From positions 1,230,001-1,262,000 of the forward strand of contig NZ_CP027570.1 in NCBI RefSeq assembly GCF_003010495.1: a DNA stretch of 32,000 nucleotides, written 5' to 3'. The stretch is from Megasphaera elsdenii DSM 20460 (lineage in GTDB: Bacteria > Bacillota > Negativicutes > Veillonellales > Megasphaeraceae). Below are positions 4,145 through 31,945 of the stretch, one piece after another. Below the pieces are notes generated by a model. That model did no database searches, was not told the DNA's origin, and saw nothing but the letters and a program-made list of their open reading frames with translations. Every line of letters begins with the position of its first letter. Within the stretch, counting starts at the first letter, position 1. A program made the translations under genes and the position numbers.

Positions 4145-5086
4145 TTGTTCATGGAAATGTTATCGGCCATAGCGCCTTTCTTCATGGCTGGCCTGCTGGG
4201 GACGGTGTTCGCCCGTTTTACGGGCATCAATATGAGCATGTGCGTCCTCCTCATGTTTTTGTACATGGGGGCCAAGCCCGTCGAATGTATTGCCGCTATG
4301 TTGATGTTTAATGTATTCACCTATTTTACGGTGTATTCTCAGCTTCACGTCATGAAGATCAAGAGTTTCACCTTTTTCCCTGGCGTGCGCCTGGCCATCC
4401 CGATTTTGATCACCATTGCCCTGGCTGCGCTCAATCCTTTCATCGGCATCGTCTTTTTCGTCTTCACGTTCCTCATGGAAATCTTCGCCAAGATTTATAA
4501 GGAAATGGATGCCAAGTCGCGTCCGACGAAGGGGAAAATCGGTCAGATGGTCGTCCTCGCCGCTGTCCTGGTGACGATTGGCACGGCTCTCGTCCAGTTC
4601 ATCCCGGAAAATTATTATTACATCGTCGGCGGCGTGACTATTTTGATTTACGCCTTCTTCATGTGGCGGACGGGAGACCGCCGCAAGGGAACGGCCTGGT
4701 GGGATAAGCTGCTCTATGCATCGACGTTCCTCACCGGTCTGAGCGGCATCGACGGGACGGACTGGCTCACGGCGATGCGCCGTAATCCCGAATCGGTCTT
4801 GTCTAAATGCTATCCCATCGTCATCAACGGGGCCATGATCATCGCCCTGCTGGCATCGTATGCTATGTATCAGTATTTCTCGCTGGGTGCCTTGTTTGCT
4901 ACCATCGGTTCGGCCGTCGGCATCCGCCTGTTTGGCTTATATGAACATAAAGAAAAGGGAAGCTTTTCTTACCTCACCTTGGGCATTGCCGTCCTAGCAG
5001 CCCTGGTGTTCATGATCATCCAGCCCGTACCGACAGGATTCCCTGTCGTGCCCATGGCAGATAATGCCGGATTTTTCGATTTTTAG
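4145..5086 (+). CDS. Polytopic integral membrane protein of unknown function
   Basis: There are about 8-9 hydrophobic segments and no motif I recognise. The start is TTG 4145 or ATG 4151, after AGGAG at 4135-4139. It lies 18 nt after pyrE and so is probably co-transcribed. Confidence 0.6.
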   Translation: MFMEMLSAIAPFFMAGLLGTVFARFTGINMSMCVLLMFLYMGAKPVECIAAMLMFNVFTYFTVYSQLHVMKIKSFTFFPGVRLAIPILITIALAALNPFIGIVFFVFTFLMEIFAKIYKEMDAKSRPTKGKIGQMVVLAAVLVTIGTALVQFIPENYYYIVGGVTILIYAFFMWRTGDRRKGTAWWDKLLYASTFLTGLSGIDGTDWLTAMRRNPESVLSKCYPIVINGAMIIALLASYAMYQYFSLGALFATIGSAVGIRLFGLYEHKEKGSFSYLTLGIAVLAALVFMIIQPVPTGFPVVPMADNAGFFDF

Positions 5087-5093
5087 TTTTGCA

Positions 5094-5128
5094 AAAAAGC
5101 GCTGTCTTTTATGGCAGCGCTTTTTTTT
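5094..5128 (+). terminator. Rho-independent terminator (GCGCTG...CAGCGC stem plus a T8 run)
   Basis: The sequence is AAAAAAGCGCTGTCTTTTATGGCAGCGCTTTTTTTT. It belongs to the recurring terminator family seen after carB, argD and the SGNH gene. Confidence 0.85.
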
Positions 5129-5130
5129 GC

Positions 5131-5185
5131 AAGGCTCCCTTTATAGGGGAGCTGGCCGCCGGAGGCGGTCTGAGAGGTTGTTTTT
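5131..5185 (+). repeat. Conserved double-hairpin element, copy A
   Basis: AAGGCTCCCTTTATAGGGGAGCTG-GCCGCC-GGA-GGCGGT-CTGAGAGGTTGTTTTT. It is homologous to the minus-strand copy at 24211-24155, with compensatory changes in the second stem. Confidence 0.6.
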
Positions 5186-5277
5186 AAATATTTGCAGGAA
5201 AACGGCGGGCTTTGTCGAATATATTATATATGCCTTATTTATGACTCAATTTTATTTTATATAAAGGGGGGATCCCT

Positions 5278-5775
5278 ATGAAGAAAAGTATTATCTTAGC
5301 GATGGTCGTAGCGGCTTTGGCTTGCGGGCCGGCCTGGGCTTATGATGAAGGACCGGTCATGGGGCCGTATTCGGCGATTCCCGGATTGACGGCGGTGCAG
5401 CAATGCCAATTGACGGTGGCCGGCAAGGTCATGGACCCGGCAGAGGGGGCTGTTTTACAGGAAAATAATGTGGTCATGATTCCCTTGCGGAAAGTGGCGG
5501 AACAGCTCGGTTATACCGTGACCTGGGATCCTGACGATCAGAGCGTTCGCGTAGAAATGAACATTGCCTATATCATCGTCAAGCCCGGTGAAGACTGGTA
5601 TGAACGGATCGGGACGATCAAGAAGGTCAACTTGAACCACATCTTCCAGTACGGTGCCGGCCCGGTCAATGTCAACGGTACGATGTACGTCCCGGCCCAG
5701 CTCTTTGAAGCCTTTTACAACAGCGTCACCATTACGCCCCAGGCCGTGACCATTACGCCGGCATCGACAGACTGA
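5278..5775 (+). CDS. Secreted protein with a copper-amine-oxidase-N-terminal-like (stalk) domain
   Basis: A signal peptide is present (MKKSIILAMVVAALACGPAWA). The segment VMIPLRKVAEQLGYTVTWDPDDQSVRV is typical of that domain family, from memory. The RBS is GGGGGGA. Confidence 0.65.
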   Translation: MKKSIILAMVVAALACGPAWAYDEGPVMGPYSAIPGLTAVQQCQLTVAGKVMDPAEGAVLQENNVVMIPLRKVAEQLGYTVTWDPDDQSVRVEMNIAYIIVKPGEDWYERIGTIKKVNLNHIFQYGAGPVNVNGTMYVPAQLFEAFYNSVTITPQAVTITPASTD

Positions 5776-5792
5776 AGTCGTGAAAAAACTGC

Positions 5793-5821
5793 TTGACTTT
5801 ATGGGCCTTGGTCGATACAAT
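5793..5821 (+). promoter_or_regulatory. Promoter of the pyrB operon
   Basis: TTGACT at 5793-5798, a 17-nt spacer, and TACAAT at 5816-5821. Confidence 0.6.
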
Positions 5822-5835
5822 ATATAGAAGAATAT

Positions 5836-5968
5836 GTGGCAGTCCCGTGAGGCTGTGCGATTCTAATACTTTCAGATTGTACCTTTAATGTAGTCCGGAG
5901 AGGCTAAAAAGGGACATATTTTGCCATGCTTATAATATGACCTTTGCCCTGCGGCAGAGGTCTTTTTT
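5836..5968 (+). promoter_or_regulatory. PyrR-type transcription attenuator (binding loop, antiterminator, terminator)
   Basis: CCTTTAATGTAGTCCGGAGAGGCTAAAAAGG (5882-5912) matches the PyrR binding-loop core GUCCAGAGAGGCU. A second GTCCCGTGAGGCT lies at 5841-5853. The antiterminator AAAGGGACATATT / AATATGACCTTT overlaps both alternative structures. The terminator GACCTTTGCC-CTGC-GGCAGAGGTC plus T6 lies at 5939-5968. Confidence 0.75.
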
Positions 5969-5982
5969 ACAAGGAGGATTCG

Positions 5983-6927
5983 ATGGTTAGTATACAGGGC
6001 AAAAGCCTGTTGGGGCTCCAGGGAGTACCGAAGGAAGAAATTGAATTGATACTGCGGGTCGCTAAGAAGATGAAGGCCGTCGTCAACAGCGGGAATAAGA
6101 AGTTATCCCTGCTCAAAGGGAAATCGGTGGTCAACATGTTCTGGGAACCGAGTACGCGTACGCGCGGTTCCTTTGAAATGGCTGCCAAGTATCTCGGCGC
6201 TGATGTCATCAACTTTACGCCGCGGGGAAGCTCCATCCAGAAAGGTGAAAGTTTCCGCGATACCCTGCTGACGGTAACCGCTATGGGTGTCGATGCCATC
6301 GTCATGCGTCAGAAACAGGAAGGTTCGCCGTGGTTTGCTGACCGCTGTGTCGACCCGATTATCATTAACGCCGGTGACGGCGCGCACGAACATCCGACGC
6401 AGGGCCTCCTCGACATGTTCACCATTAAGGAAGTCAAAGGTCACATCGACGGCTTGAAAGTTGTCATCGTCGGCGATATCGACCACGGCCGCGTCGCCCG
6501 CTCCAATATCTATGGTCTCAAGACCATGGGTGCCGACGTCCACCTCGTCGGTCCGCGGACTCTGCTCCAGCCGGAATTGGAAGCTATGGGTGTCAAAGTC
6601 CATTACGACTTGAAGGAAGCCATCCAGGATGCAGACGTCATCAACGTCTTGCGTATCCAGAAAGAACGTCAGGGTATCGGCTTCTTCCCCAGTGCCGGTG
6701 AATACAATTCGCTCTTCGGTATCAACCGCGACCGCCTCAAGTGGGCTAAAGACGACGTCCTCGTCCTTCATCCGGGTCCCATGAACCGGGGCATCGAAAT
6801 CGAACCGGATACATGTTACAGTGAATTTTCTTCGATTCAGGAACAGGTCAAGAACGGCGTATCCGTCCGTATGGCCGTATTATATCTGACAATTATGGGA
6901 GGCGATGACGTTGACACTACTCGTTAA
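5983..6927 (+). CDS. pyrB: Aspartate carbamoyltransferase catalytic subunit
   Basis: Motifs STRTR, HPTQ and HPGP are present. ATG 5983 follows AAGGAGG at 5971-5977. The ORF-track start at 5944 lies inside the terminator hairpin, so I rejected it. Confidence 0.93.
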   Translation: MVSIQGKSLLGLQGVPKEEIELILRVAKKMKAVVNSGNKKLSLLKGKSVVNMFWEPSTRTRGSFEMAAKYLGADVINFTPRGSSIQKGESFRDTLLTVTAMGVDAIVMRQKQEGSPWFADRCVDPIIINAGDGAHEHPTQGLLDMFTIKEVKGHIDGLKVVIVGDIDHGRVARSNIYGLKTMGADVHLVGPRTLLQPELEAMGVKVHYDLKEAIQDADVINVLRIQKERQGIGFFPSAGEYNSLFGINRDRLKWAKDDVLVLHPGPMNRGIEIEPDTCYSEFSSIQEQVKNGVSVRMAVLYLTIMGGDDVDTTR

Positions 6928-14057: not shown

Positions 14058-14170
14058 ACGGGATTCAGGCGGGCCGCAGCCTCTGCTGTCCGTTCTGGCA
14101 ACCGTCCTGCGCCTTCCGTTGGTCGGCACCTGACGGGCCAGAAAGGCCCTCTGGGACGGCCCCTACGGTT
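14058..14170. repeat. Partial copy of the interior of the 393-776 element, plus a REP hairpin
   Basis: CTGCTGTCCGTTCTGGCAACCGTCCTGCGCCTTCCGTTGGTCGGCACCTGACGGG...GGGACGGCCCCTACGG parallels 500-592. Confidence 0.6.
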
Positions 14171-16983: not shown

Positions 16984-18156
16984 ATGGCAGAAGATTATAA
17001 AACCCTTGATAAAGAATATATCGTTAATGTATACAACCGGGTCGGTGCTGTGTTGGACCACGGCAAAGGCGCTGTATTATATGATGTCGATGGCAAGAAA
17101 TATATCGACCTCAGTGCCGGCATTGCCGTCAACATCTTCGGTGTCTGCGATGATGTGTGGATCAAAGCCGTCGAAACGCAGCTCCATAAATTGAGCCATA
17201 TTTCCAACGTCTTCTTTACGGAACCTCAGACCGTCTTGGCTGAAAAACTCTGCCAGAAGACAGGCATGAAGAAAGTCTTCTTCTCCAACTCCGGTGCCGA
17301 AGCCAACGAATGTGCCATCAAGACGGCCCGCAAATATTCGTACGACAAATATGGCGACGGCCGTTATACCATCGTCACCTTGAAGAACAGCTTCCACGGC
17401 CGGACCATTGCCACCTTGACGGCGTGCGGCCAGGACTCGCTTCATGAAGATTTCGGCCCCTTCGTCGACGGCTTCGTCTATGCCGAACCCGATGATTTTG
17501 CCGACATGAAGCGGCTTTGCGAAGAAAACAATGTCTGCGCTATCATGATGGAAATGGTCCAGGGCGAAGGCGGCGTCCATCCTCTCGACAAGGAATACGT
17601 CCAACAAGTCGTAGAATATGCTCACGCTCATGATATCCTGATTATCGTCGACGAAGTCCAGACCGGTAATGGCCGGACGGGCTATCTCTATTCCTACATG
17701 GGCTATGGTATCCAGCCCGATATTGTCTCGACAGCCAAAGCCATCGGCGGTGGCCTGCCATTGGGCGCTACGATGTTCGCCGATTCGACGCAGCATACCC
17801 TGACTAATCACACCCATGGCTCGACCTTTGGCGGCAACCCGATTTGTACGGCTGGCGGCATTTCCATCATCGACCGCCTCGACGACGACCTTATGGCAGA
17901 AGTTCGGGAAAAAGGGAAATACATCAAAGAAGAACTGGAACAATGCGAACACGTCGACCACGTATCGGGCATGGGCCTCATGATCGGCGTCGCCCTCAAA
18001 AATAAAGCCCTCATGGACGTCGTAGAAGGCTGCGTAGACAACGGTGTCCTCGTCCTCACAGCCAATGGCCTCCTGCGCCTCCTGCCGCCGCTCAACATCC
18101 CTTGGGACGAATTGAAAGAAGCCATCGGCATCGTTAAGAAGGTCATCGATAAATAG
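16984..18156 (+). CDS. argD: Acetylornithine aminotransferase (class III PLP)
   Basis: FSNSGAEANE, the IVDEVQTGNGRTG motif, and the PLP-lysine context TAKAIGGG are present. Confidence 0.9.
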   Translation: MAEDYKTLDKEYIVNVYNRVGAVLDHGKGAVLYDVDGKKYIDLSAGIAVNIFGVCDDVWIKAVETQLHKLSHISNVFFTEPQTVLAEKLCQKTGMKKVFFSNSGAEANECAIKTARKYSYDKYGDGRYTIVTLKNSFHGRTIATLTACGQDSLHEDFGPFVDGFVYAEPDDFADMKRLCEENNVCAIMMEMVQGEGGVHPLDKEYVQQVVEYAHAHDILIIVDEVQTGNGRTGYLYSYMGYGIQPDIVSTAKAIGGGLPLGATMFADSTQHTLTNHTHGSTFGGNPICTAGGISIIDRLDDDLMAEVREKGKYIKEELEQCEHVDHVSGMGLMIGVALKNKALMDVVEGCVDNGVLVLTANGLLRLLPPLNIPWDELKEAIGIVKKVIDK

Positions 18157-18172
18157 AATATAGTTTGTAGTG

Positions 18173-18210
18173 AAAAAAGGCGCTGTCGCATGAAGACAGC
18201 GCCTTTTTTG
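18173..18210 (+). terminator. Rho-independent terminator of the arg operon
   Basis: GGCGCTGTC-GCATGAA-GACAGCGCC plus T6. It is preceded by TATAGTTTGTAGT (18159-18171), which is identical to the 13-mer after the carB stop. Confidence 0.9.
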
Positions 18211-18235
18211 CAGCCAGCGGTTAGCTGTTAGCAAA

Positions 18236-18345
18236 AAATACACGGCCAACGGCCTTGTGCGTAGGGGCTGTCCCGCTGAGGGCAGCCCGCTGCGAAATTC
18301 GACCACACCTATTCGAGTATAATGGTAGGTTTTTACGAACCACGA
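18236..18345 (+). repeat. REP unit of about 110 bp
   Basis: AAAAAATACACGGCCAACGGCCTTGTGCGTAGGGGCTGTCCC...GGGCAGCCCGCTGCGAAATTCGACCACACCTATTCGAGTATAATGGTAGG, then heptads ACGAACC ACGAACT ACGGCCT. Related copies lie at 18512-18625, 20118-20230 and 20405-20525, and in reverse at about 560-610. Confidence 0.7.
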
Positions 18346-18357
18346 ACTACGGCCTTT

Positions 18358-18731
18358 CCTCGGACTCAGATGCGGCGTTCCGCCGCGACAGGCTCAAATT
18401 AACAACGACGCTTCGGGAAATCCTCAGCGCGTAGCGGGACGCCCTCCGGAATATCCTCCGGGACGTCCCCTACGAAATCGCATACAGGCGATGGGAATGA
18501 ACGCAGTTACAGGGCACAAAAAAAAACACGGCCTGTGGCCGTATGCGTAGGGGACGTCCAAAGGGCGTCCCGTTGTGATATTCGACCACAGCCCATTCGA
18601 GTATAATGGCAGGCTTTTACGAGCCACGAACAATGAACCACGAGCCACGATTTTTTCCACGAGCCGAGGGTTACTCGAGGCGATGTCGTCATTCTGAGCC
18701 TGTCGCCGCGTAGCGGCATCTGAGTCCGAGG
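18358..18731. mobile_element. MITE-like element, copy 1 (374 bp)
   Basis: The left TIR is CCTCGGACTCAGATGCGGCGTTCCGCCGCGACAGGCTCA (18358-18396). The right TIR is TGAGCCTGTCGCCGCGTAGCGGCATCTGAGTCCGAGG (18695-18731). The interior carries REP hairpins and 5 heptads (18619-18653). Confidence 0.75.
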
Positions 18732-18775
18732 CGGCCTGCGAACGGCGAACTGCGACCGGCGGGGCCGTTAGGCCC

Positions 18776-19981
18776 TTATAATCGCAATTGGTAGCGGTAT
18801 GGCCGTATTTCTTTATTTATCCACAGATATTCTTCAGGAATTTTTTTCAGATGATTGTAGACTGTGTTTTCAGAAATGTTTAGAGTTTCTATGATTTCTT
18901 TTACGGAAACGCCGATGTCGGAAAAGATAGCCGCTTGCAGCAGGATATCGCAAATGGCAGCAGTGGTTTTATTTTTTGTTGATAGGGACGGCGTTTGGGC
19001 AAGTTTTTCTTTGGCTTTTTGATAAGTTTGATATTTGTGTTTGAGTGTATGGTGTGTAAAAAGCGTGGCCTGTTCGATGAACTGCAAAGTCCCTATGATG
19101 AAGGGGGTCAAATCTCCGCGATTGATATCGGCATCGGTATGTGAAAACAGGTCGTAGTATCTTTTGCGGTATTTTTTGATTAAGATAGAAACTTGCAGGG
19201 CTATTGCGGGATGTAAATGCAATGCCAACAAATAAGACGTGATAAATCGCGCCATTCGGCCATTTCCATCATAGAAAGGATGGATGTAGCCAAAGAAATA
19301 GTGAAAGATAGCAACACGAATTAAATAAGGGATGGTCTTGTCATTCAGCACATCGAGAGCTGCGTCCATCATCTCGATGATAGCTGATTCCGGGTAGACT
19401 CCTTGATGGATAGTTTTTTGTGCCGGTGAGACGATGTCGACACGATCCTTATGAAAGATTTTCCCATCAGGGAGATTTTTGGAGTCATCTCGTTTAATTT
19501 CATCGGCCAGAAAATCGTCGAAAAGCTGGCGGATATCCTGGCTGGTAGTTAAAGGGATGTATTCTTTTTGAATGATTTTGATGTATTTGTTGACGATGCT
19601 GCCCAACCGGTAAGATGACTGTTCCGATTCGGGGACGGAAAAAGCCATCAAGATCTCTTTCCTCGTACTGCGGACGCCTTCAATGTCATTGGTCGATTTG
19701 ATTTCATCAACTAGGGACATATGCAAAAATTGTGATATAGCGGCCGGTGGGACTTGATGTATAATATCGAGACAGTCCATGACTTCGCTGGCAATTTTTT
19801 CCAAGGATAAGGCGATTTCTTCAGTATAGCAGAAAAATGCTGGATGGCTTTGCCGACGATGATACTGCTTTATGGCCAAAGGCAAATGACGGCTAAAAGG
19901 GCTGTGAAACCGTTCCTGATATACTTTTTCCCATATTTGGTTGTCTTTGTAATAGAGTGAATACAGAGATTCATATTTCAT
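18776..19981 (-). CDS. Fic-family protein (class II, AMPylase-type) with a C-terminal wHTH
   Basis: The complete Fic motif HPFYDGNGRMAR is present. The N-terminal inhibitory motif TNDIEG fits (S/T)xxxE(G/N). The C-terminal wHTH is present. ATG 19981 lies 6 nt after GAGGTG, and I rejected the longer ORF-track start at 20077. The gene is visibly AT-rich relative to its flanks. Confidence 0.88.
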   Translation of the reverse strand: MKYESLYSLYYKDNQIWEKVYQERFHSPFSRHLPLAIKQYHRRQSHPAFFCYTEEIALSLEKIASEVMDCLDIIHQVPPAAISQFLHMSLVDEIKSTNDIEGVRSTRKEILMAFSVPESEQSSYRLGSIVNKYIKIIQKEYIPLTTSQDIRQLFDDFLADEIKRDDSKNLPDGKIFHKDRVDIVSPAQKTIHQGVYPESAIIEMMDAALDVLNDKTIPYLIRVAIFHYFFGYIHPFYDGNGRMARFITSYLLALHLHPAIALQVSILIKKYRKRYYDLFSHTDADINRGDLTPFIIGTLQFIEQATLFTHHTLKHKYQTYQKAKEKLAQTPSLSTKNKTTAAICDILLQAAIFSDIGVSVKEIIETLNISENTVYNHLKKIPEEYLWINKEIRPYRYQLRL

Positions 19982-20117
19982 GGCAGTCACCTCAAAAAAA
20001 GCGAATTTTGCTATCTGATGATTCTGAGACCTCAAAAAATGGAAATTTTGAGGTTTCACTTTTATTATACTCGGCAATTGATAATATGAACAGTATAGTG
20101 CTCAGATTGCAGGTGGC

Positions 20118-20230
20118 CGGTCGCAAAAAAACGGCCAGCGACCGTATAGGTAGGGGACGCCCGGAGGGCGTCCCGCTGTGATATTCGATTGCAGCCTATT
20201 CGGGTTTAATGGTATGCTTTTTGATTACGA
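20118..20230 (+). repeat. REP unit (diverged copy)
   Basis: AAAAAAACGGCCAGCGACCGTATAGGTAGGGGACGCCCGGAGGGCGTCCCGCTGTGATATTCGATTGCAGCCTATTCGGGTTTAATGG. Confidence 0.65.
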
Positions 20231-20249
20231 ATAACGCGCCGCGGCCTTT

Positions 20250-20629
20250 CCTCGGACTCAGATGCGGCGTTCCGCCGCGACAGGCTCAAATTAACAACGA
20301 CGCTTCGGGAAACTCTCAGCGCGTAGCGGGACGCCCTCCGAAATATCCTCCGGGACGTCCCCTACGAAATCGCATACAGGCGATGGGAATGAACGCAGTT
20401 ACAGGGCACAAAAAAAACACGGCCTGTGGCCGTATGCGTAGGGGACGCCCAAAGGGCGTCCCGTTGTGATATTCGACCACAGCCCATTCGAGTATAATGG
20501 CAGGCTTTTACGAGCCACGAGCCACGAACAACGAACCACGAGCCACGATTTTTTCCACGAGCCGAGGGTCACTCGAGGCGATGTCGTCATTCTGAGCCTG
20601 TTGCCGCATAGCGGCATCTGAGTCCGAGG
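20250..20629. mobile_element. MITE-like element, copy 2 (380 bp), in direct orientation relative to copy 1
   Basis: It is near-identical by eye to 18358-18731, with a handful of substitutions, and has 6 rather than 5 heptads (20510-20551). The shared flank continues to about 20676 (compare 18775). Confidence 0.75.
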
Positions 20630-20785
20630 CGGCCTGCGAACTGCAGCCTGCGACCGGCGGGGCCGTCAGGGCCCAACATACTATTTGCGAAATATTTTTC
20701 TTGCTATTCATGGGGGAATTGCGTACAATAGGGCTGTACTATTTTACAATATCAATGCAAAGGAAGAGGATAGGGAGAGAAGAAT

Positions 20786-22945
20786 ATGAAACATTTGAAG
20801 ATAGCTTACAGCTTTGATGTACAGTATTATTTCGTTGACAGCGACCGGGAAATCGTTCCTATTGAGCAGACGGATTTCACCGATGTGGCCGTAGCGGTTA
20901 TTTCGGACCAGGATTTTGCCTACATCGACAAGATCGATGAAACGGGATTCGGAATTCCCATCATGGTCATCATGCCGGGCGGCGAGAAGATGCCGGACCA
21001 ATATATTGATAAAGTCGATGTCGTCTTTACGGAAGAAATGGTCAATAAGAGCCGCTGCATTTCGACAGCCGAACGGTTGGCCAGCCGTTATGAACATGCT
21101 GTGCTGCCGCCGTTTTTTGCCGACCTCGTCGATTATGTCAGTGAAAAGAATACGCCTTTTGACTGCCCGGGCCACCAAGATGGCCTGTTTTTCAAGAAGC
21201 ATCCGGCAGGACGCTATCTTTATGATTTTTATGGACCTCATATTTTTCAATCCGATATCTGCAATGCCGATGTAACCCTTGGTGATTTGCTCATTCACGA
21301 AGGGCCGGCCTTGGAAGCCCAGGATTTTGCAGCCCAAGTCTTCCATGCAGACAAGACTTATTTCGTCCTCAATGGGTCTTCGTCGTCTAATAAGGTCGTC
21401 ACCAACGCCCTTTTGACGCCAGGGGACCTGGTCCTTTATGACCGCAACAATCACAAGTCCGTGGCCCTCGGGGCCCTCATCCAGGCCGGGGCGACGCCGG
21501 TTTATTTGGAAACGGCCCGCAATCCCTATGGTTTTATCGGCGGCATTGACGCCCATTGCTTCGATGAAACGTATCTGCGCCAATTGGCAGCCGAACGGGA
21601 TCCGGAAAAAGCTAAGGCCCAACGACCTTTCCGCCTGGCTGTTATCCAGCTCGGTACTTATGACGGGACGCTGTATAATGCCCGCTATGTCGTCGACCGT
21701 ATCGGTCATCTCTGCGATTATATCCTCTTTGATTCGGCCTGGGTCGGCTATGAACAATTCATTCCTATGCTCAAGGACTGCTCGCCGCTGCTCCTCGATT
21801 TGCATGAAGATGACCCGGGAATCATGGTCGTCCAGTCGGTCCATAAGCAGCAGGCCGGTTTTTCTCAGGCTTCGCAGATTCACAAAAAGGATAATCATAT
21901 CCATAACCAGTCACGCTACTGTAACCACAAGACTTTCAACAACGCCTTCATGGCCAACGCCTCGACGAGTCCTTTTTATCCTATGTTCGCAACGATTGCC
22001 GTCAATGCCAAAATCCATGCCGGTGCGGCTGGCCGCAAGATGTGGATGGACTGTGTGAAAATGGGTATCGAAGCCCGCAAGGATATCCTGCGCCGCTGCC
22101 ATTATATCCGGCCTTTCGTAGCGCCGACGGTCCACGGCAAACCCTGGCAGGATGGCAATACCGATGACATGGCCAATGACCTGGCTTATTTCACCTTTGA
22201 ACCGGACGCCAAATGGCATGCCTTCGAAGGCTACGGGCCGGGACAATATCTCGTCGACCCGTGCAAGCTCCTCTTGACGACGCCAGGCATCAACGCCGAA
22301 TCGGGACAGTACGAGGATTTCGGCATCCATGCCAATATCTTGGCGACGTATCTGCGCGGCAACGGCGTCATTCCGGAAAAATGCGATTTGAACTCAATCC
22401 TTTTCTTGCTGACACCGGCTGAAAATAAGAATAAGATGCGCCTCCTCGTATCCCAGCTGGTCCGCTTCGAACGCTTCGTCGACCATGACGTCCCCATGCA
22501 GGAAGTCCTTCTCGGCGTCTACAACTCGCATCCGGACCGCTATGCAGGCTATACAATCCGCCAGCTTTGCCAGGAAATGCACGATTTCTATAAGGTACGG
22601 AACGTCAAGGACCTGCAGAAGAAACTTTTCCGCCGCCAATACTTCCCGGAATACGCCATGAATGCCCAGGAAGCGCAATACGCCTTTATCCGTGGCCAGG
22701 GCGAACTCGTGCCCCTCGATGAAATCGAAGGCCGTATCGCCCTCGAAGGGGCCCTGCCCTATCCGCCGGGCGTCCTCTGCGTCGTCCCGGGTGAACGCTG
22801 GTCCCATACGGCCGTCCAGTACTTCAAGGCATTGGAAGAAGGCCTCAATGAATTGCCAGGTTTCGCCTCGGAAATCCAGGGCGTCTACCTGGAAAAAGAA
22901 GACGACGGCCGCATCCACGCTTATGGGTATGTGCTGAAGGAATAG
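20786..22945 (+). CDS. Large PLP-dependent Orn/Lys/Arg decarboxylase (SpeC/CadA/AdiA family)
   Basis: It is 719 aa with an N-terminal wing-type domain and the PLP-lysine motif SVHKQQAGFSQAS. The substrate cannot be assigned from the sequence alone. Its position next to the arg genes hints at ornithine. Confidence 0.85.
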   Translation: MKHLKIAYSFDVQYYFVDSDREIVPIEQTDFTDVAVAVISDQDFAYIDKIDETGFGIPIMVIMPGGEKMPDQYIDKVDVVFTEEMVNKSRCISTAERLASRYEHAVLPPFFADLVDYVSEKNTPFDCPGHQDGLFFKKHPAGRYLYDFYGPHIFQSDICNADVTLGDLLIHEGPALEAQDFAAQVFHADKTYFVLNGSSSSNKVVTNALLTPGDLVLYDRNNHKSVALGALIQAGATPVYLETARNPYGFIGGIDAHCFDETYLRQLAAERDPEKAKAQRPFRLAVIQLGTYDGTLYNARYVVDRIGHLCDYILFDSAWVGYEQFIPMLKDCSPLLLDLHEDDPGIMVVQSVHKQQAGFSQASQIHKKDNHIHNQSRYCNHKTFNNAFMANASTSPFYPMFATIAVNAKIHAGAAGRKMWMDCVKMGIEARKDILRRCHYIRPFVAPTVHGKPWQDGNTDDMANDLAYFTFEPDAKWHAFEGYGPGQYLVDPCKLLLTTPGINAESGQYEDFGIHANILATYLRGNGVIPEKCDLNSILFLLTPAENKNKMRLLVSQLVRFERFVDHDVPMQEVLLGVYNSHPDRYAGYTIRQLCQEMHDFYKVRNVKDLQKKLFRRQYFPEYAMNAQEAQYAFIRGQGELVPLDEIEGRIALEGALPYPPGVLCVVPGERWSHTAVQYFKALEEGLNELPGFASEIQGVYLEKEDDGRIHAYGYVLKE

Positions 22946-22959
22946 TGCGGTACGAAATC

Positions 22960-23100
22960 TCGTCAAATGCGTAACGGGCTCGCCACGTGCGAGCCCCTAC
23001 ATCGAATACGGGATTCCTGCAAATACTTTTTTATGTCAAATGGGAATTGTCCCCAAACAGCGTAGGGGTCGCCATGTGGGCGACCCGCGTGAATTTTGTG
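22960..23100. repeat. REP hairpins plus a fragment of the 393-776 element arm
   Basis: GGGCTCGCCACGTGCGAGCCCC and GTAGGGGTCGCCATGTGGGCGACCCGCGTGAATTTTGTGTATAGCCTGAATTTATGACA. Compare 656-715. Confidence 0.6.
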
Positions 23101-23120
23101 TATAGCCTGAATTTATGACA

Positions 23121-23170
23121 AAAGGGATTGTACATGATGACGTTTGCCATCATGTACAATCCCTTTTCGT
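23121..23170. terminator. Bidirectional terminator between the convergent decarboxylase and metF genes
   Basis: A 16-bp perfect stem, GGGATTGTACATGATG / CATCATGTACAATCCC, is flanked by an A-run and a T-run. Confidence 0.85.
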
Positions 23171-23179
23171 GTGTTTTTT

Positions 23180-23252
23180 ACGATGAACGAACTGTGGGCC
23201 GCCGTTATGGCGGCCCCTACGATGAACGACGAACGGCCTACGATGAACGATG
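23180..23252. repeat. Heptads flanking a REP hairpin
   Basis: ACGATGA ACGAACT, then GTGGGCCGCCGTTATGGCGGCCCC, then TACGATG AACGACG AACGGCC TACGATG AACGATG. Confidence 0.6.
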
Positions 23253-25169: not shown

Positions 25170-25400
25170 CTTTTCTGTTCCGTCATTATCCTTGAACCTC
25201 TCCCGCTTATAGAAGCGGGAGATTCTTGAGAAATTTGATACATGGACTAACGCCTGACAGCCTATTCCAAAGGAGTTAGCTGTCAGGATATCCTTATTCT
25301 CAAAGGGCTGTCCAAAAGCCCCTTACACAGTCCCTCGAAATCGAAGTTCTGCTTACTTTTACGGAGTATGTTGTATGCTCCATTCACATCCGCGTTGGCC
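25170..25400 (-). ncRNA. Putative omega/reRNA of TnpB (3' end of tnpB plus RE); not demonstrated
   Basis: This is by analogy with characterised TnpB systems. Hairpins lie at 25253-25287 (CCTGACAGC...GCTGTCAGG, spanning the stop codon) and at 25199-25222. Confidence 0.3.
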
Positions 25401-26700
25401 ATCCTGCCATCGGCGAACTGGTACAAGCCACGGTGGATACGCTTCCCACTGAACGTGCCAGTATACGGCTGTTCAGGATTATAGACAGGAATATCGTCTA
25501 AATCCAAGCAACTTGCTTGAGAAGTGTAAGATTCTTCCTGTTCGATATATCGCATACCGTAACGCTCGCAAAGTCCTTCCAGTGTTTCACGCAGATTACC
25601 GAAACTGATTTGCGTAAACTGCTGGTTGGTTATCCTACCCAGGTCGATACTACGTTTAAAGTCACCGTTATAACCACAGACGATGGTTCCGATACGGTGT
25701 TCGATACAGTAGTTGATGATATAGCGGGCAACCTTGCGGAGGTAGTCCTGTGTCCGATTATTACGTTTTCTTGCTAAGGCATAGAGCCTGTGCGTTTTCT
25801 TCTGTCCTTGTTTGTCGGCAATCCCCTGATAGTAGGCTTTCTGCTTGTTCCAATACTGGTTGATTGATTTAAGTTTACGCCCGTCCATGATGAACGCCGT
25901 CCCGGTGTTGGTCACGCAAGTTGCCAGATTTTCAAGACCGATGTCGATAGCAAGGACATTGTCCGGTGAAACGTCTTGAGGTTCTTTCTCCTGAAGATAG
26001 TAATACTGGATTTTGAAGTATCTGCCATTATATATGGGACAGATACGGACTTCCTTGATGGTTTTCTCTTTCAGTCTTGCAGGGAAAGGGATTTTGATTG
26101 GCTTACGGCCATGCCGTTTAGAAAATCCCCGACTCATGGGGATCGTCAAGAATCCATCTTTTACGTTTATGGCGTTCGTGGAGAGAATCAGGTTGAACAT
26201 GCCGCCTTTTTCCCGATAGTGAGGCATTTTGATGTCCTTGAAGCGATATTCTCCTGATTTTGCCTTTTTTATGAGATTGAAGAATGACTTGAAACTGCGG
26301 TCAGCCACCTTCAATATCTGCTGAGACACGCCAGCCTGCAACAGACCGTAGTTTTCGTTTTCCTTGCAGACATGGTAATTTTCTTCGTATTTCAAGAACT
26401 TCTTCTCTTGGAAATAGTATTGCCTGATGTTGTAGAGAGCCACGTTGTAGAGGTTGTTGCTGTATTGGCACATCTCCCGCAGCATGGCATATTCTTCTTT
26501 GGAAAGATTTCTGATGACATTTGATTGAGTAAGATACACATTTTTCACCTCCTTTTTTATTATATGATTATTATGTGGGAAATAGTGATGATTTTTAAGA
26601 TGAGTTACAGCGTTTTTGTGCTTTTTACGGGCCTTGGACCCACTCAAGCACCGCCATTCATCCCCCACCTAAGAGGTGGGAGTCTTCTGGCGGGAAAAGA
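25192..26700 (-). mobile_element. IS200/IS605-family TnpB-only (IS1341-like) element; ends are approximate
   Basis: tnpB is flanked by related CTCCC-type subterminal hairpins: the LE side at 26662-26682 and the RE side at 25199-25222. There is no tnpA. GC content is lower than in the flanks. TTCAA lies just outside the RE hairpin. Confidence 0.75.
25283..26539 (-). CDS. tnpB: TnpB (IS605 OrfB) RNA-guided endonuclease family protein
   Basis: The RuvC-like residues are in LAIDIGLEN, EESYTSQ and NADVNGAYNI. The GTG start at 26539 lies 8 nt after AGGAGG. The longer ORF-track start at 26668 has no RBS and runs into the LE hairpin. Confidence 0.88.
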   Translation of the reverse strand: MYLTQSNVIRNLSKEEYAMLREMCQYSNNLYNVALYNIRQYYFQEKKFLKYEENYHVCKENENYGLLQAGVSQQILKVADRSFKSFFNLIKKAKSGEYRFKDIKMPHYREKGGMFNLILSTNAINVKDGFLTIPMSRGFSKRHGRKPIKIPFPARLKEKTIKEVRICPIYNGRYFKIQYYYLQEKEPQDVSPDNVLAIDIGLENLATCVTNTGTAFIMDGRKLKSINQYWNKQKAYYQGIADKQGQKKTHRLYALARKRNNRTQDYLRKVARYIINYCIEHRIGTIVCGYNGDFKRSIDLGRITNQQFTQISFGNLRETLEGLCERYGMRYIEQEESYTSQASCLDLDDIPVYNPEQPYTGTFSGKRIHRGLYQFADGRMANADVNGAYNILRKSKQNFDFEGLCKGLLDSPLRIRIS

Positions 26701-26745: not shown

Positions 26746-26840
26746 TCTTTATCTCTCGGAATAATCCGCAGGAATTGGCACCGTCGTTATCGGTTGCCGG
26801 GCTTCATAGGGCCAGTCCCTCCACCACTCTGGATAAATGT
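26746..26840 (-). promoter_or_regulatory. SAM-I (S-box) riboswitch aptamer
   Basis: The minus strand reads TTATCCAGAGTGGTGGAGGGACTGGCCCTATGAAGCCCGGCAACCGATAACGACGGTGCCAATTCCTGCGGATTATTCCGAGAGATAAAG. This matches the S-box consensus almost position for position. Confidence 0.92.
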
Positions 26841-31717: not shown

Positions 31718-31752
31718 TGGCTCGTGATTCGTGGTTCGTAGCTCGTAGGGGC
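31718..31752. repeat. Heptad array directly after the stop codon
   Basis: GTGGCTC GTGATTC GTGGTTC GTAGCTC GTAGGGG. Confidence 0.7.
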
Positions 31753-31781
31753 CGCCCAAAGGGCGGCCCGCCTGATTCACT

Positions 31782-31814
31782 AAAAAAGCACTGTCTTTAT
31801 GACAGTGCTTTTTA
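31782..31814 (+). terminator. Rho-independent terminator (same family as the carB and argD terminators)
   Basis: AAAAAAGCACTGTC-TTTAT-GACAGTGC followed by TTTTT. Confidence 0.88.
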
Positions 31815-31821
31815 TGAACTA

Positions 31822-31945
31822 TAGGGGCGCGCATGTGGCGCTCCTACAATGTGGGCTACGAACCACCAGCCACTAGCCACTAGCCACTAGCCACTGATTT
31901 ACGGGATTCCCACAACGGGCCGCCCTTTGGGACGGCCCCTACAGT
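31822..31945. repeat. REP hairpins and a perfect AGCCACT x4 microsatellite
   Basis: AGGGGCGCGCATGTGGCGCTCCT lies at 31822-31844. AGCCACT x4 lies at 31868-31895, in inverted orientation relative to the 31718-31752 array. GGGCCGCCCTTTGGGACGGCCCCTAC lies at 31917-31942. Confidence 0.75.

Follow-up and report, generated by a model that had tools for sequence, protein, structure and literature searches.

When a gene of foreign composition is found between two core genes and is bracketed by nearly identical direct repeats, the question is whether the repeats brought the gene in. We address this question for a 32,000-nt stretch of the chromosome of Megasphaera elsdenii DSM 20460 (contig NZ_CP027570.1, positions 1,230,001 to 1,262,000; hereinafter, the window, whose own numbering is used throughout). 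In the window, a class II Fic gene lies between argD and a gene for an Orn/Lys/Arg decarboxylase, with a repeat module of about 0.5 kb on either side. The initial annotation had described the modules as a repetitive extragenic palindrome (REP) joined to a miniature inverted-repeat transposable element (MITE) and had suggested that the Fic cassette was acquired through them. The data discussed below make a different reading probable in our judgement: the argD-decarboxylase spacer would be a nest of the type built by REPs and REP-associated tyrosine transposases (RAYTs), lodged between core genes, with a SoFic-like Fic gene as cargo that is turned over by recombination, and the conspicuous direct pair would be recent.

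The cassette itself (18776-20117, 1.34 kb) contains 40.8% GC, as against 57.8% and 58.6% in the two modules and 52.4% in the whole window, so that the AT-richness that had been noted by eye held on measurement. The Fic coding sequence (CDS; 18776..19981, minus strand) has a GC content of 41.3%, and of 45.5% at third codon positions (GC3), whereas the 24 other CDSs of the window stand at 53.5 +/- 3.1% and 66.0 +/- 5.8%, respectively; the z-scores of Fic relative to these CDSs are -3.9 for GC and -3.5 for GC3. The reading frame begins with ATG behind a GAGGTG Shine-Dalgarno sequence and encodes 401 amino acids (aa); a 433-aa open reading frame (ORF) with a TTG start was rejected as an over-extension in favor of this ATG. 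Fic is an accessory, compositionally foreign and intact gene. The rest of the cassette is the 136-nt 5' region of Fic (19982..20117, minus strand), hereinafter X, which comprises the Shine-Dalgarno sequence, a hairpin in the 5'-untranslated region (5'-UTR) and a -10 hexamer (minus strand, 20061-20066) that matches TATAAT perfectly and is accompanied by a weak -35.

A repeat search and a MAFFT alignment confirmed that the module occurs twice in direct orientation, at 18233-18775 (0.54 kb) and 20118-20673. Each copy consists, in this order, of an A-type REP unit, a B-type inverted-repeat element (the "MITE" of the initial annotation) with a second A-type unit nested centrally, and a heptad-like tail, all given here on the plus strand. 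In the left copy, the outer A-type unit occupies 18233..18352, the B-type element 18353..18737 (nested unit 18519-18650) and the tail, GCGAACGGCGAACTGCGACCGGCGGGGCCGTTAGGCCC, 18738..18775, abutting the Fic stop codon. In the right copy, the corresponding parts are 20118..20244 (with a minus-strand terminator-like site at 20131-20145), 20245..20635 (nested unit 20410-20541) and 20636..20673; the two tails, GGCCTGCGAAC...GGGGCCGT, are 84% identical. The outer units are about 65-70% alike, with indels between them, whereas identity rises to about 96% in the roughly 425-nt core of the module, between about 18350/20243 and 18775/20673 (95.9% in the MITE part; 94-95% for the repeat families D1-D3). 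The core copies differ by scattered substitutions, a 1-nt change in an A-run and a 7-nt heptad (ACGAGCC) that the right copy has in addition, in line with the five versus six heptads counted previously. Homology does end at the cassette edges, as had been stated: the last base of the left copy, 18775, immediately precedes the Fic stop codon (TTA in plus-strand reading, 18776-18778), and the right copy ends at 20673-20676, where it adjoins the upstream region of the decarboxylase gene. The MITE part, present in both copies, is somewhat longer than the 374-380 bp originally given, measuring 385 nt on the left and 391 nt on the right.

What kind of repeats are these? Each module combines parts of two dispersed REP-type families, A and B. 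An A-type unit contains, on the minus strand, a hairpin resembling an intrinsic terminator (ACGGCCnnnGGCCGT, followed by a T-run), then a GC-rich GTAG-headed palindrome (GTAGGGGACGYCC-nnn-GGGCGTCCC), a plus-strand promoter-like site (TTCGAC-N17-TATAAT) and heptads of the CACGAGC type, and all these parts can be recognized in the left outer unit. The first terminator encountered beyond the Fic stop codon is the one in the left nested unit (minus strand, 18526-18544). The arms of the B-type element open with CCTCGGACTCAGATG, continue with a small palindrome and then GACAGGCTCA, and make up an inverted repeat that resembles a REPIN, a REP doublet. GTAG-headed palindromes are a hallmark of REPs. 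All 14 GTAGGGG sites of the window (582, 656, 14166, 18261-18547, 20150-20438, 23000-23220 and 31745-31942) are intergenic, the intergenic share of the window being 17.7% (about 3e-11 by chance); the sequence following each site is GC-rich and palindromic by eye, and 6 of the sites passed an automated hairpin check that allowed one mismatch.

Runs of 7-nt repeats (CACGAGC, CGATGAA and CCACTAG types) flank the REP hairpins at 18592-18650, 20483-20541, 780-811, 23180-23250, 31720-31745 and 31860-31895. The number of heptads varies among copies and strains, and the runs, located downstream of the A-type promoter-like site, may be prone to slippage. A third dispersed intergenic repeat, CTGCTGTCCGTTCTG..AACCGTCCTGC..CCGATGGTCGG.., lies beside GTAG REPs at 502-569 and 14083-14150; these two copies are 85% identical, and another copy is found within the right module of a sister lineage (L025; here and below, L numbers designate individual sequences of the survey).

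The designation of the B-type element as a MITE deserves a separate consideration. Like MITEs and composite transposons, the element has terminal inverted repeats (TIRs), is non-coding and is predicted to form a strong hairpin: folded as single-stranded DNA, it yields -103.9 kcal/mol, with a z-score of -8.3 relative to shuffled sequences. The TIRs, about 45-57 nt long, are imperfect: the paired arms of 51-57 nt are 71-74% complementary (74% at 57 nt), and their core, CCTCGGACTCAGATGC...GACAGGCTCA, matches much better. Unlike in MITEs and composite transposons, there is no target-site duplication at either copy (ACTACGG/CC...GGCC/TGCGAAC on the left and GCCGCGG/CC...GGCC/TGCGAAC on the right), no matching autonomous insertion sequence (IS) was found, and the ends of the IS605-type elements in the window (25192-26699) and in L021 are unrelated to those of the "MITE". 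A pattern scan of metagenome contigs for the TIRs returned 16 stretches, too few for an estimate of copy number, 11 of which represent the argD-decarboxylase locus and five represent other loci. At these other loci, where A+B composites occur as well (L111, L112, L118, L120 and L121), what comes after the A-type units is either one B arm on its own or a B doublet about 210 nt long (L112 169-379; L120 6356-6566), whereas the full 385-nt form was seen, among these stretches, at the Fic locus only. Since elsewhere the arms occur singly or as the shorter doublet, the 385-nt "MITE" appears to be a locus-specific composite of dispersed REP-type parts; of the module as initially described, the REP units stand, whereas the MITE is not a discrete unit at the other loci. 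A scan of the window at the Rfam gathering thresholds retrieved a SAM riboswitch alone, with no match inside the modules, and an 86-aa ORF within the right module (20209-20469), looked up as a proxy for copies of the MITE, gave no record.

The next question is what occupies the same site in related organisms. The site was surveyed using a scan of genome contigs with ArgD, together with metagenome contigs. Its borders are well defined. On one side, argD (16984-18156; Aminotran_3 match) is followed by an intrinsic terminator read from the sequence (18179..18209, plus strand; GGCGCTGTC-loop-GACAGCGCC, then a T-run), which is 93-100% conserved across the sister lineages, including those that have no Fic. 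On the other side, the 719-aa decarboxylase gene (20786-22945) is preceded by an upstream region (20674..20785, plus strand) with a promoter-like site of its own (TTGCTA-17-TACAAT, 20701-20729). In M. massiliensis, M. cerevisiae and other Megasphaera (L034-L038, L039 and L041), the gap between the two genes is 152-420 bp and contains no Fic; in L040, also from outside the M. elsdenii complex, there is no Fic either, the spacer being about 1.2 kb long with contents that fall outside the survey. No module part or TIR core was detected in the outgroup Megasphaera genomes checked.

Within the complex, the members of which share about 85-94% identity with the window in the aligned DNA, the site is variable. 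Fic is present in L025, L110, L122, L032 and L021, where the protein is, respectively, 95, 94, 86, 98 and 81% identical to the window Fic. It is absent from three other lineages, so that the gene is indeed not invariant across the genus. In one of these (L030, M. elsdenii MSK.21.52), the spacer is 541 bp long and holds a single module of a REP and half a MITE: the terminator is followed by the counterpart of the left outer A-type unit (87%), an extra REP hairpin, a B arm (85%), a diverged tail, an inverted REP and the decarboxylase upstream region, the latter being 100% identical to that in the window from 20679 on. In the second (L058), the site is occupied by a RAYT gene and, in the third (L031), by an 853-aa YadA-like gene. 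The combinations are also found: L021 carries a RAYT gene, Fic, an IS605-type tnpB and a YadA-like gene, whereas the order in L113 is Fic, module, YadA. A low GC content (43-48%) is common to all the alternative cargo. The presence or absence among strains that had been anticipated is thus seen, and the Fic-less L030 has a solo module; no Fic-less allele turned up in M. elsdenii proper among the matches listed for the exact Fic, ArgD and decarboxylase sequences (10 per protein, 30 places, several of them on the same contig).

Two side observations concern this cargo. The YadA-anchor genes (trimeric autotransporter-like; L031 9985-12546, L021 1753-3732 and L113 1985-4254) contain internal repeats of 42 nt and 255 nt and have a GC content of 44-45%. 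In L021, the IS605-type tnpB element (4506-6000; left end CAAATTGCGGG..., right end ...GTAGTTGAC) is inserted, with no duplication, exactly between the Fic ATG and the Shine-Dalgarno sequence, and probably uncouples Fic from its translation signals.

Could all this simply reflect an old vertically inherited gene that was lost here and there by plain deletion, with the repeats as irrelevant decoration and the low GC content as a property of the family? The Fic-containing lineages all share the position between argD and the decarboxylase gene; in L025, L110 and L032, Fic has diverged in DNA about as much as its flanks (92-96% versus 91-95% identity); the catalytic and inhibitory motifs of the protein are conserved; and REP units fill at least five other spacers of the window as well. 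However, overall, the Fic alleles show 81-99% protein identity, as compared to 98-99% for the flanking decarboxylase. In L021, Fic is 76% identical in DNA and the flanks are 93-94% identical; in L122, the figures are 86% for the Fic protein and 99% for the decarboxylase. In these two lineages, the history of Fic differs from that of the flanks, which suggests allele replacement. Moreover, unrelated low-GC cargo, RAYT or YadA, sits at the same site in sister lineages, the outgroup species have neither Fic nor the repeats, and the homologues of Fic typically occur in defence or mobile contexts. We consider a purely vertical history improbable.

The preferred reading, a nest turned over by recombination, is also consistent with the structure of the spacer itself. 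Site content differs among close lineages, with breakpoints and changes in copy number falling within the repeats. Within M. elsdenii proper, extra partial modules make the length of the argD-side spacer vary between 619 and 1147 bp. The right MITE lacks a part or is rearranged in L003, L025 and L110. In L032 (M. intestinihominis), Fic has no right MITE, and the heptad-like tail is kept beside the decarboxylase upstream region. L003 has a lineage recombination breakpoint in the right module, because its argBD (99.9%) and Fic (100%) are nearly identical to those of the window but its decarboxylase is only 94.4% identical.

The RAYT genes at the orthologous site point to the nature of the nest. 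The 150-160-aa Y1 transposases of L058 and L021 match the NCBIfam model REP_Tyr_transpos at 1.9e-17 and 1.6e-17, respectively, and the IS200 model at 1e-4 to 1e-5; they contain HUH (HVHFIV) and YIENNP motifs, their genes are flanked by A and B units, and many of their homologues are named RayT by the respective sources. The window segment 19982-20070, which lies in X and abuts the Fic start codon, is homologous to the DNA that directly follows the RAYT stop codons (L021 7642-7758; L058 10218-10298; the first 90-117 nt after the stop), at 86-94% identity. Within this part of X, a plus-strand terminator-like hairpin (20025-20058) fits the 3' end of a RAYT gene and not Fic; since Fic is read in the opposite direction, the hairpin is ill-suited to it. 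A second RAYT, P0124 (M. elsdenii according to NCBI/UniRef), 48% identical to the RAYT of the argD site, is encoded in L140 (1916-3227) between an amino acid (AA) permease gene and queC and is accompanied by direct A+B modules, two upstream and one downstream. Because this second RAYT is bracketed by modules of the same kind, module-gene-module is the standard way in which RAYT genes are housed in this group; the window has Fic in a housing of this kind.

The resemblance to the REP/REPIN-RAYT systems (Nunvar 2010; Bertels & Rainey 2011, PMC3116915; Bertels 2017, PMC5581495) therefore extends to strictly extragenic GC-rich GTAG palindromes, REPIN-like doublets, repeat-flanked RAYT genes (L021, L058 and L140) and Y1 transposases that score as REP_Tyr_transpos. 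The differences lie in the long composite units with a terminator, a promoter-like site and heptad runs, in the coexistence of two repeat families, A and B, in the occupation of the window slot by Fic instead of a RAYT, and in the Negativicute host, as the RAYT literature deals mainly with Proteobacteria; Group 1 RAYTs have been reported in Clostridia.

We can now return to the direct pair of modules and to the proposal that the cassette was acquired, and can be mobilized, as a unit through these modules, by integration of a circle or in the manner of a composite transposon, and is readily lost. The about 96% identity of the pair over about 425 nt and the Fic-less allele with a solo module would be expected under this proposal. 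The age of the pair, however, is at odds with it. Direct homology between the two flanks of Fic reaches at least 410 nt at 93-96% in M. elsdenii proper only. In other Fic-bearing lineages, it comes down to 192 nt at 89% (L025 and L110), 229 nt at 82% (L122), and stretches of 48 and 26 nt (L032); in L021, the 117-nt duplicate of X is the only one. Since at least five other lineages carry Fic with such weak or nearly absent flank homology, M. intestinihominis even without the right MITE, the pair is younger than the residence of Fic and, therefore, did not bring it in. By this comparison, the nearly identical pair of about 0.43 kb is best explained as a recent, lineage-specific duplication or conversion that did not deliver Fic. 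As far as acquisition is concerned, the delivery of Fic by the modules is contradicted.

The loss of Fic through the modules is a different matter: the direct pair is a possible substrate for a 1.89-kb deletion and could thus allow future loss, although none of the 30 places listed for M. elsdenii proper is Fic-less. Two contigs might seem to show the cassette on the move. L123, a 2014-bp human-gut metagenome contig, is a circular permutation, Fic5'-X-module-Fic3', and the 127-nt overlap of its ends closes a cycle of 1887 bp, that is, a circle of the cassette plus one module; this candidate was rejected as evidence of excision because the coverage is 1.3 and the overlap is k-mer-sized, as a de Bruijn graph loop would give from a direct repeat. 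The other sequence, L029 (a 4785-bp contig of GCA_022675345.1), is the only case of a junction with a second locus: the AA_permease side of the second RAYT nest (97.9% identical to L140) is connected, via a shared TIR of about 50 nt, with the right, promoter-side module and the Fic gene of a 95% allele. This junction is either a real rearrangement between nests or an assembly chimera. Considering also that no target-site duplication is visible, we view the modules as an unlikely vehicle of Fic.

Could the duplicated modules themselves be an artefact of assembly, such as a collapsed or mis-joined repeat? Repeats of this kind do confuse short-read assemblers: the longest contig with this Fic is shorter than 2 kb in 54 of the 102 collection blocks, as compared to 10 of 119 for ArgD and none of 77 for the decarboxylase, because the flanking repeats isolate the gene. 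Nevertheless, the two-module architecture, with copy-specific substitutions, is found in three complete chromosomes (HE576794.1, CP198969.1 and CP199043.1, of which HE576794.1 is 100% identical across the region) and in many independent metagenome assemblies, so that this explanation is effectively refuted.

What, then, is the cargo? The Fic protein matches the Pfam Fic family at 8.7e-14 and contains a complete active-site motif, HPFYDGNGRMAR (aa 234-245), which conforms to HxFx(D/E)GNGRxxR and is conserved in 38 homologues, with H234, P235, F236, Y237, G239, N240, G241, R242 and R245 invariant and D238 nearly so. The inhibitory (alpha-inh) motif TNDIEG (aa 97-102) closes a predicted helix (79-101) on the N-terminal side of the Fic core, and its E101 and G102 are invariant in the same 38 homologues; in a profile alignment of aa 44-397 with Coxiella Fic2 (8CIL), TNDIEG is paired with TSAIEG. 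A C-terminal winged helix-turn-helix (wHTH) is supported by weak Pfam HTH matches (aa 348-382) and by an AlphaFold2 model built on the homologue alignment (pLDDT 93.1, pTM 0.91). All three features of the protein that the initial annotation had named were thus recovered. In a Foldseek search with the model, the best full-length match was SoFic (3EQX/3ZEC), over about 360 columns with TM-scores of 0.61-0.70 (0.64-0.70 for 3EQX), and the PADLOC model of SoFic matches aa 51-384 at 3.5e-36 (123 bits, 315 of the 361 model positions). The protein is a class II Fic of the SoFic-like three-part architecture, consisting of an N-terminal alpha-inh domain, the Fic core and the C-terminal wHTH.

SoFic, according to PMC12249575 (citing Millman 2022), is a class II Fic that acts as a single-gene anti-phage defence, with Shewanella SO_4266 and E. 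coli EcSofic as members; EcSofic is toxic, and its toxicity is countered by AS1, a 47-aa protein encoded downstream (PMC12249575). The Megasphaera protein shares with SoFic the alpha-inh motif (S/T)xxxE(G/N), the Fic motif, the full-length fold including the wHTH, and the status of an accessory gene with relatives in defence or mobile contexts; it is, however, about 30 residues longer at the N-terminus, it has no AS1-like neighbor, and the REP module begins one base past its stop codon. It belongs to the same superfamily and has the same architecture as SoFic but is not an equivalog. Judging from sequence and predicted structure, it is most probably an auto-inhibited AMPylase acting in anti-phage defence of the single-gene toxin or abortive-infection type. 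A literature search for Fic in M. elsdenii returned nothing relevant.

As to the origin of the gene, the nearest homologues outside Megasphaera are those of Acidaminococcus (64-66% identity) and Selenomonas (50-60%), all of them Negativicutes. A 66% homologue adjoins a type I-C CRISPR-Cas system, and a 60% homologue lies within an island with an integrase, Bro-N and AAA+S8 genes. More distant relatives (30-37% identity) come from Clostridium plasmids, a temperate phage of Faecalibacterium and streptococcal phage satellites; the 75-aa ORFs that follow the genes of two distant homologues show no relationship to one another. A homologue search had been expected to reveal the donor lineage; it revealed no recent donor, with at most 37.5% identity in the plasmid and phage collections and 64-66% for the best homologues outside Megasphaera.

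The following scenario would account for these observations. The argD-decarboxylase spacer would have been colonized, in the M. elsdenii complex only, by REP-type repeats and alternative low-GC cargo. Fic would have come to sit in a RAYT-type slot, the former 3' flank of the RAYT being reused as its 5'-UTR and promoter region. Transcription of Fic would start from the TATAAT in X, proceed through the hairpin-containing 5'-UTR with its GAGGTG Shine-Dalgarno sequence, and end at the terminator 18526-18544 in the nested A-type unit of the left module. Gain, loss and allele replacement would proceed by homologous recombination through argD, the decarboxylase gene and the repeats, and the outcome would be the Fic+, RAYT+, YadA+, combined and solo-module alleles seen in the sister lineages. 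In neighbour-joining trees of the flanks, the Fic-less L030 and L058 nest among the Fic+ lineages and L031 groups with L021 in a basal position, a pattern that is suggestive.

Several observations weigh against parts of this picture. As for the protein, the score of the NCBIfam SoFic equivalog model is 47.8 bits against a cut-off of 550, the identity to SoFic is only about 18%, no AS1-like antitoxin gene is found downstream of Fic, where there are only spurious ORFs within the repeats, and it is homology that suggests a role in defence. The Fic promoter, the use of which we infer from the TATAAT in X, was not among the sites called by a consensus scan, so that, of the earlier description of the cassette as Fic plus its promoter, the intact gene is confirmed and the promoter is putative. 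A tblastn search of the window with the RAYT found no RAYT or remnant of one, and the notion of a former RAYT slot derives from the sister lineages. Furthermore, the RAYT and Fic coexist in L021, and X is present there twice, once beside each of them; insertion of Fic beside the RAYT with a later loss of the latter is as likely as replacement. The solo module of L030 is only 85-87% like the window modules, and this allele may represent the state before insertion rather than the product of a deletion. Finally, the flank trees are neighbour-joining trees of recombining sequence and have no support values.

A more far-reaching version of the scenario can be envisaged, in which REP/RAYT nests function as slots for the exchange of accessory genes, and Fic displaced or joined a domesticated RAYT, inheriting its 3' flank as promoter and 5'-UTR, while the modules would serve Fic as terminators and insulators. 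Cargo could then be moved or swapped between nests by the modules, perhaps assisted in trans by a RAYT of the second nest, and L029 could be a real example. We regard this version as a long shot. If it were true, RAYT housings would constitute a previously unrecognized kind of small gene-capture site in Negativicutes.

Even in the more modest form that we favor, no component of the locus is new in kind: class II Fic proteins and SoFic, REP/REPIN-RAYT systems and hotspots flanked by core genes are all known. Defence and accessory hotspots between core genes are familiar from the pan-genome studies of E. coli and Pseudomonas. The argD-decarboxylase site resembles them in the fixed flanks, the unrelated low-GC cargo in close relatives and the breakpoints at the site, and differs in its very small size (one to four genes), the REP/RAYT repeats and the lack of an integrase/tRNA island. 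What is mildly unusual is the combination of a Negativicute host, composite REP units with terminators and promoter-like sites, and a defence-type gene in a RAYT housing. The locus exemplifies how a Negativicute of the gut and rumen keeps and turns over a single defence-type toxin gene, and it shows that Megasphaera, a group outside Proteobacteria, has GTAG-headed REPs and REPIN-like doublets as well as at least two RAYT nests.

Elsewhere in the window, the minus strand carries a 1508-bp IS605-type element (25192-26699) that encodes tnpB only and has a hairpin at each end. The element is absent, with the flanks contiguous, in L030, L025 and L110, and is also missing from L058, where the flanks rejoin uncleanly. 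It is located just after the terminator T-run of the S-box (SAM) riboswitch (26746-26839) and separates this leader from the metQ-like lipoprotein and MTHFR genes that it should control.

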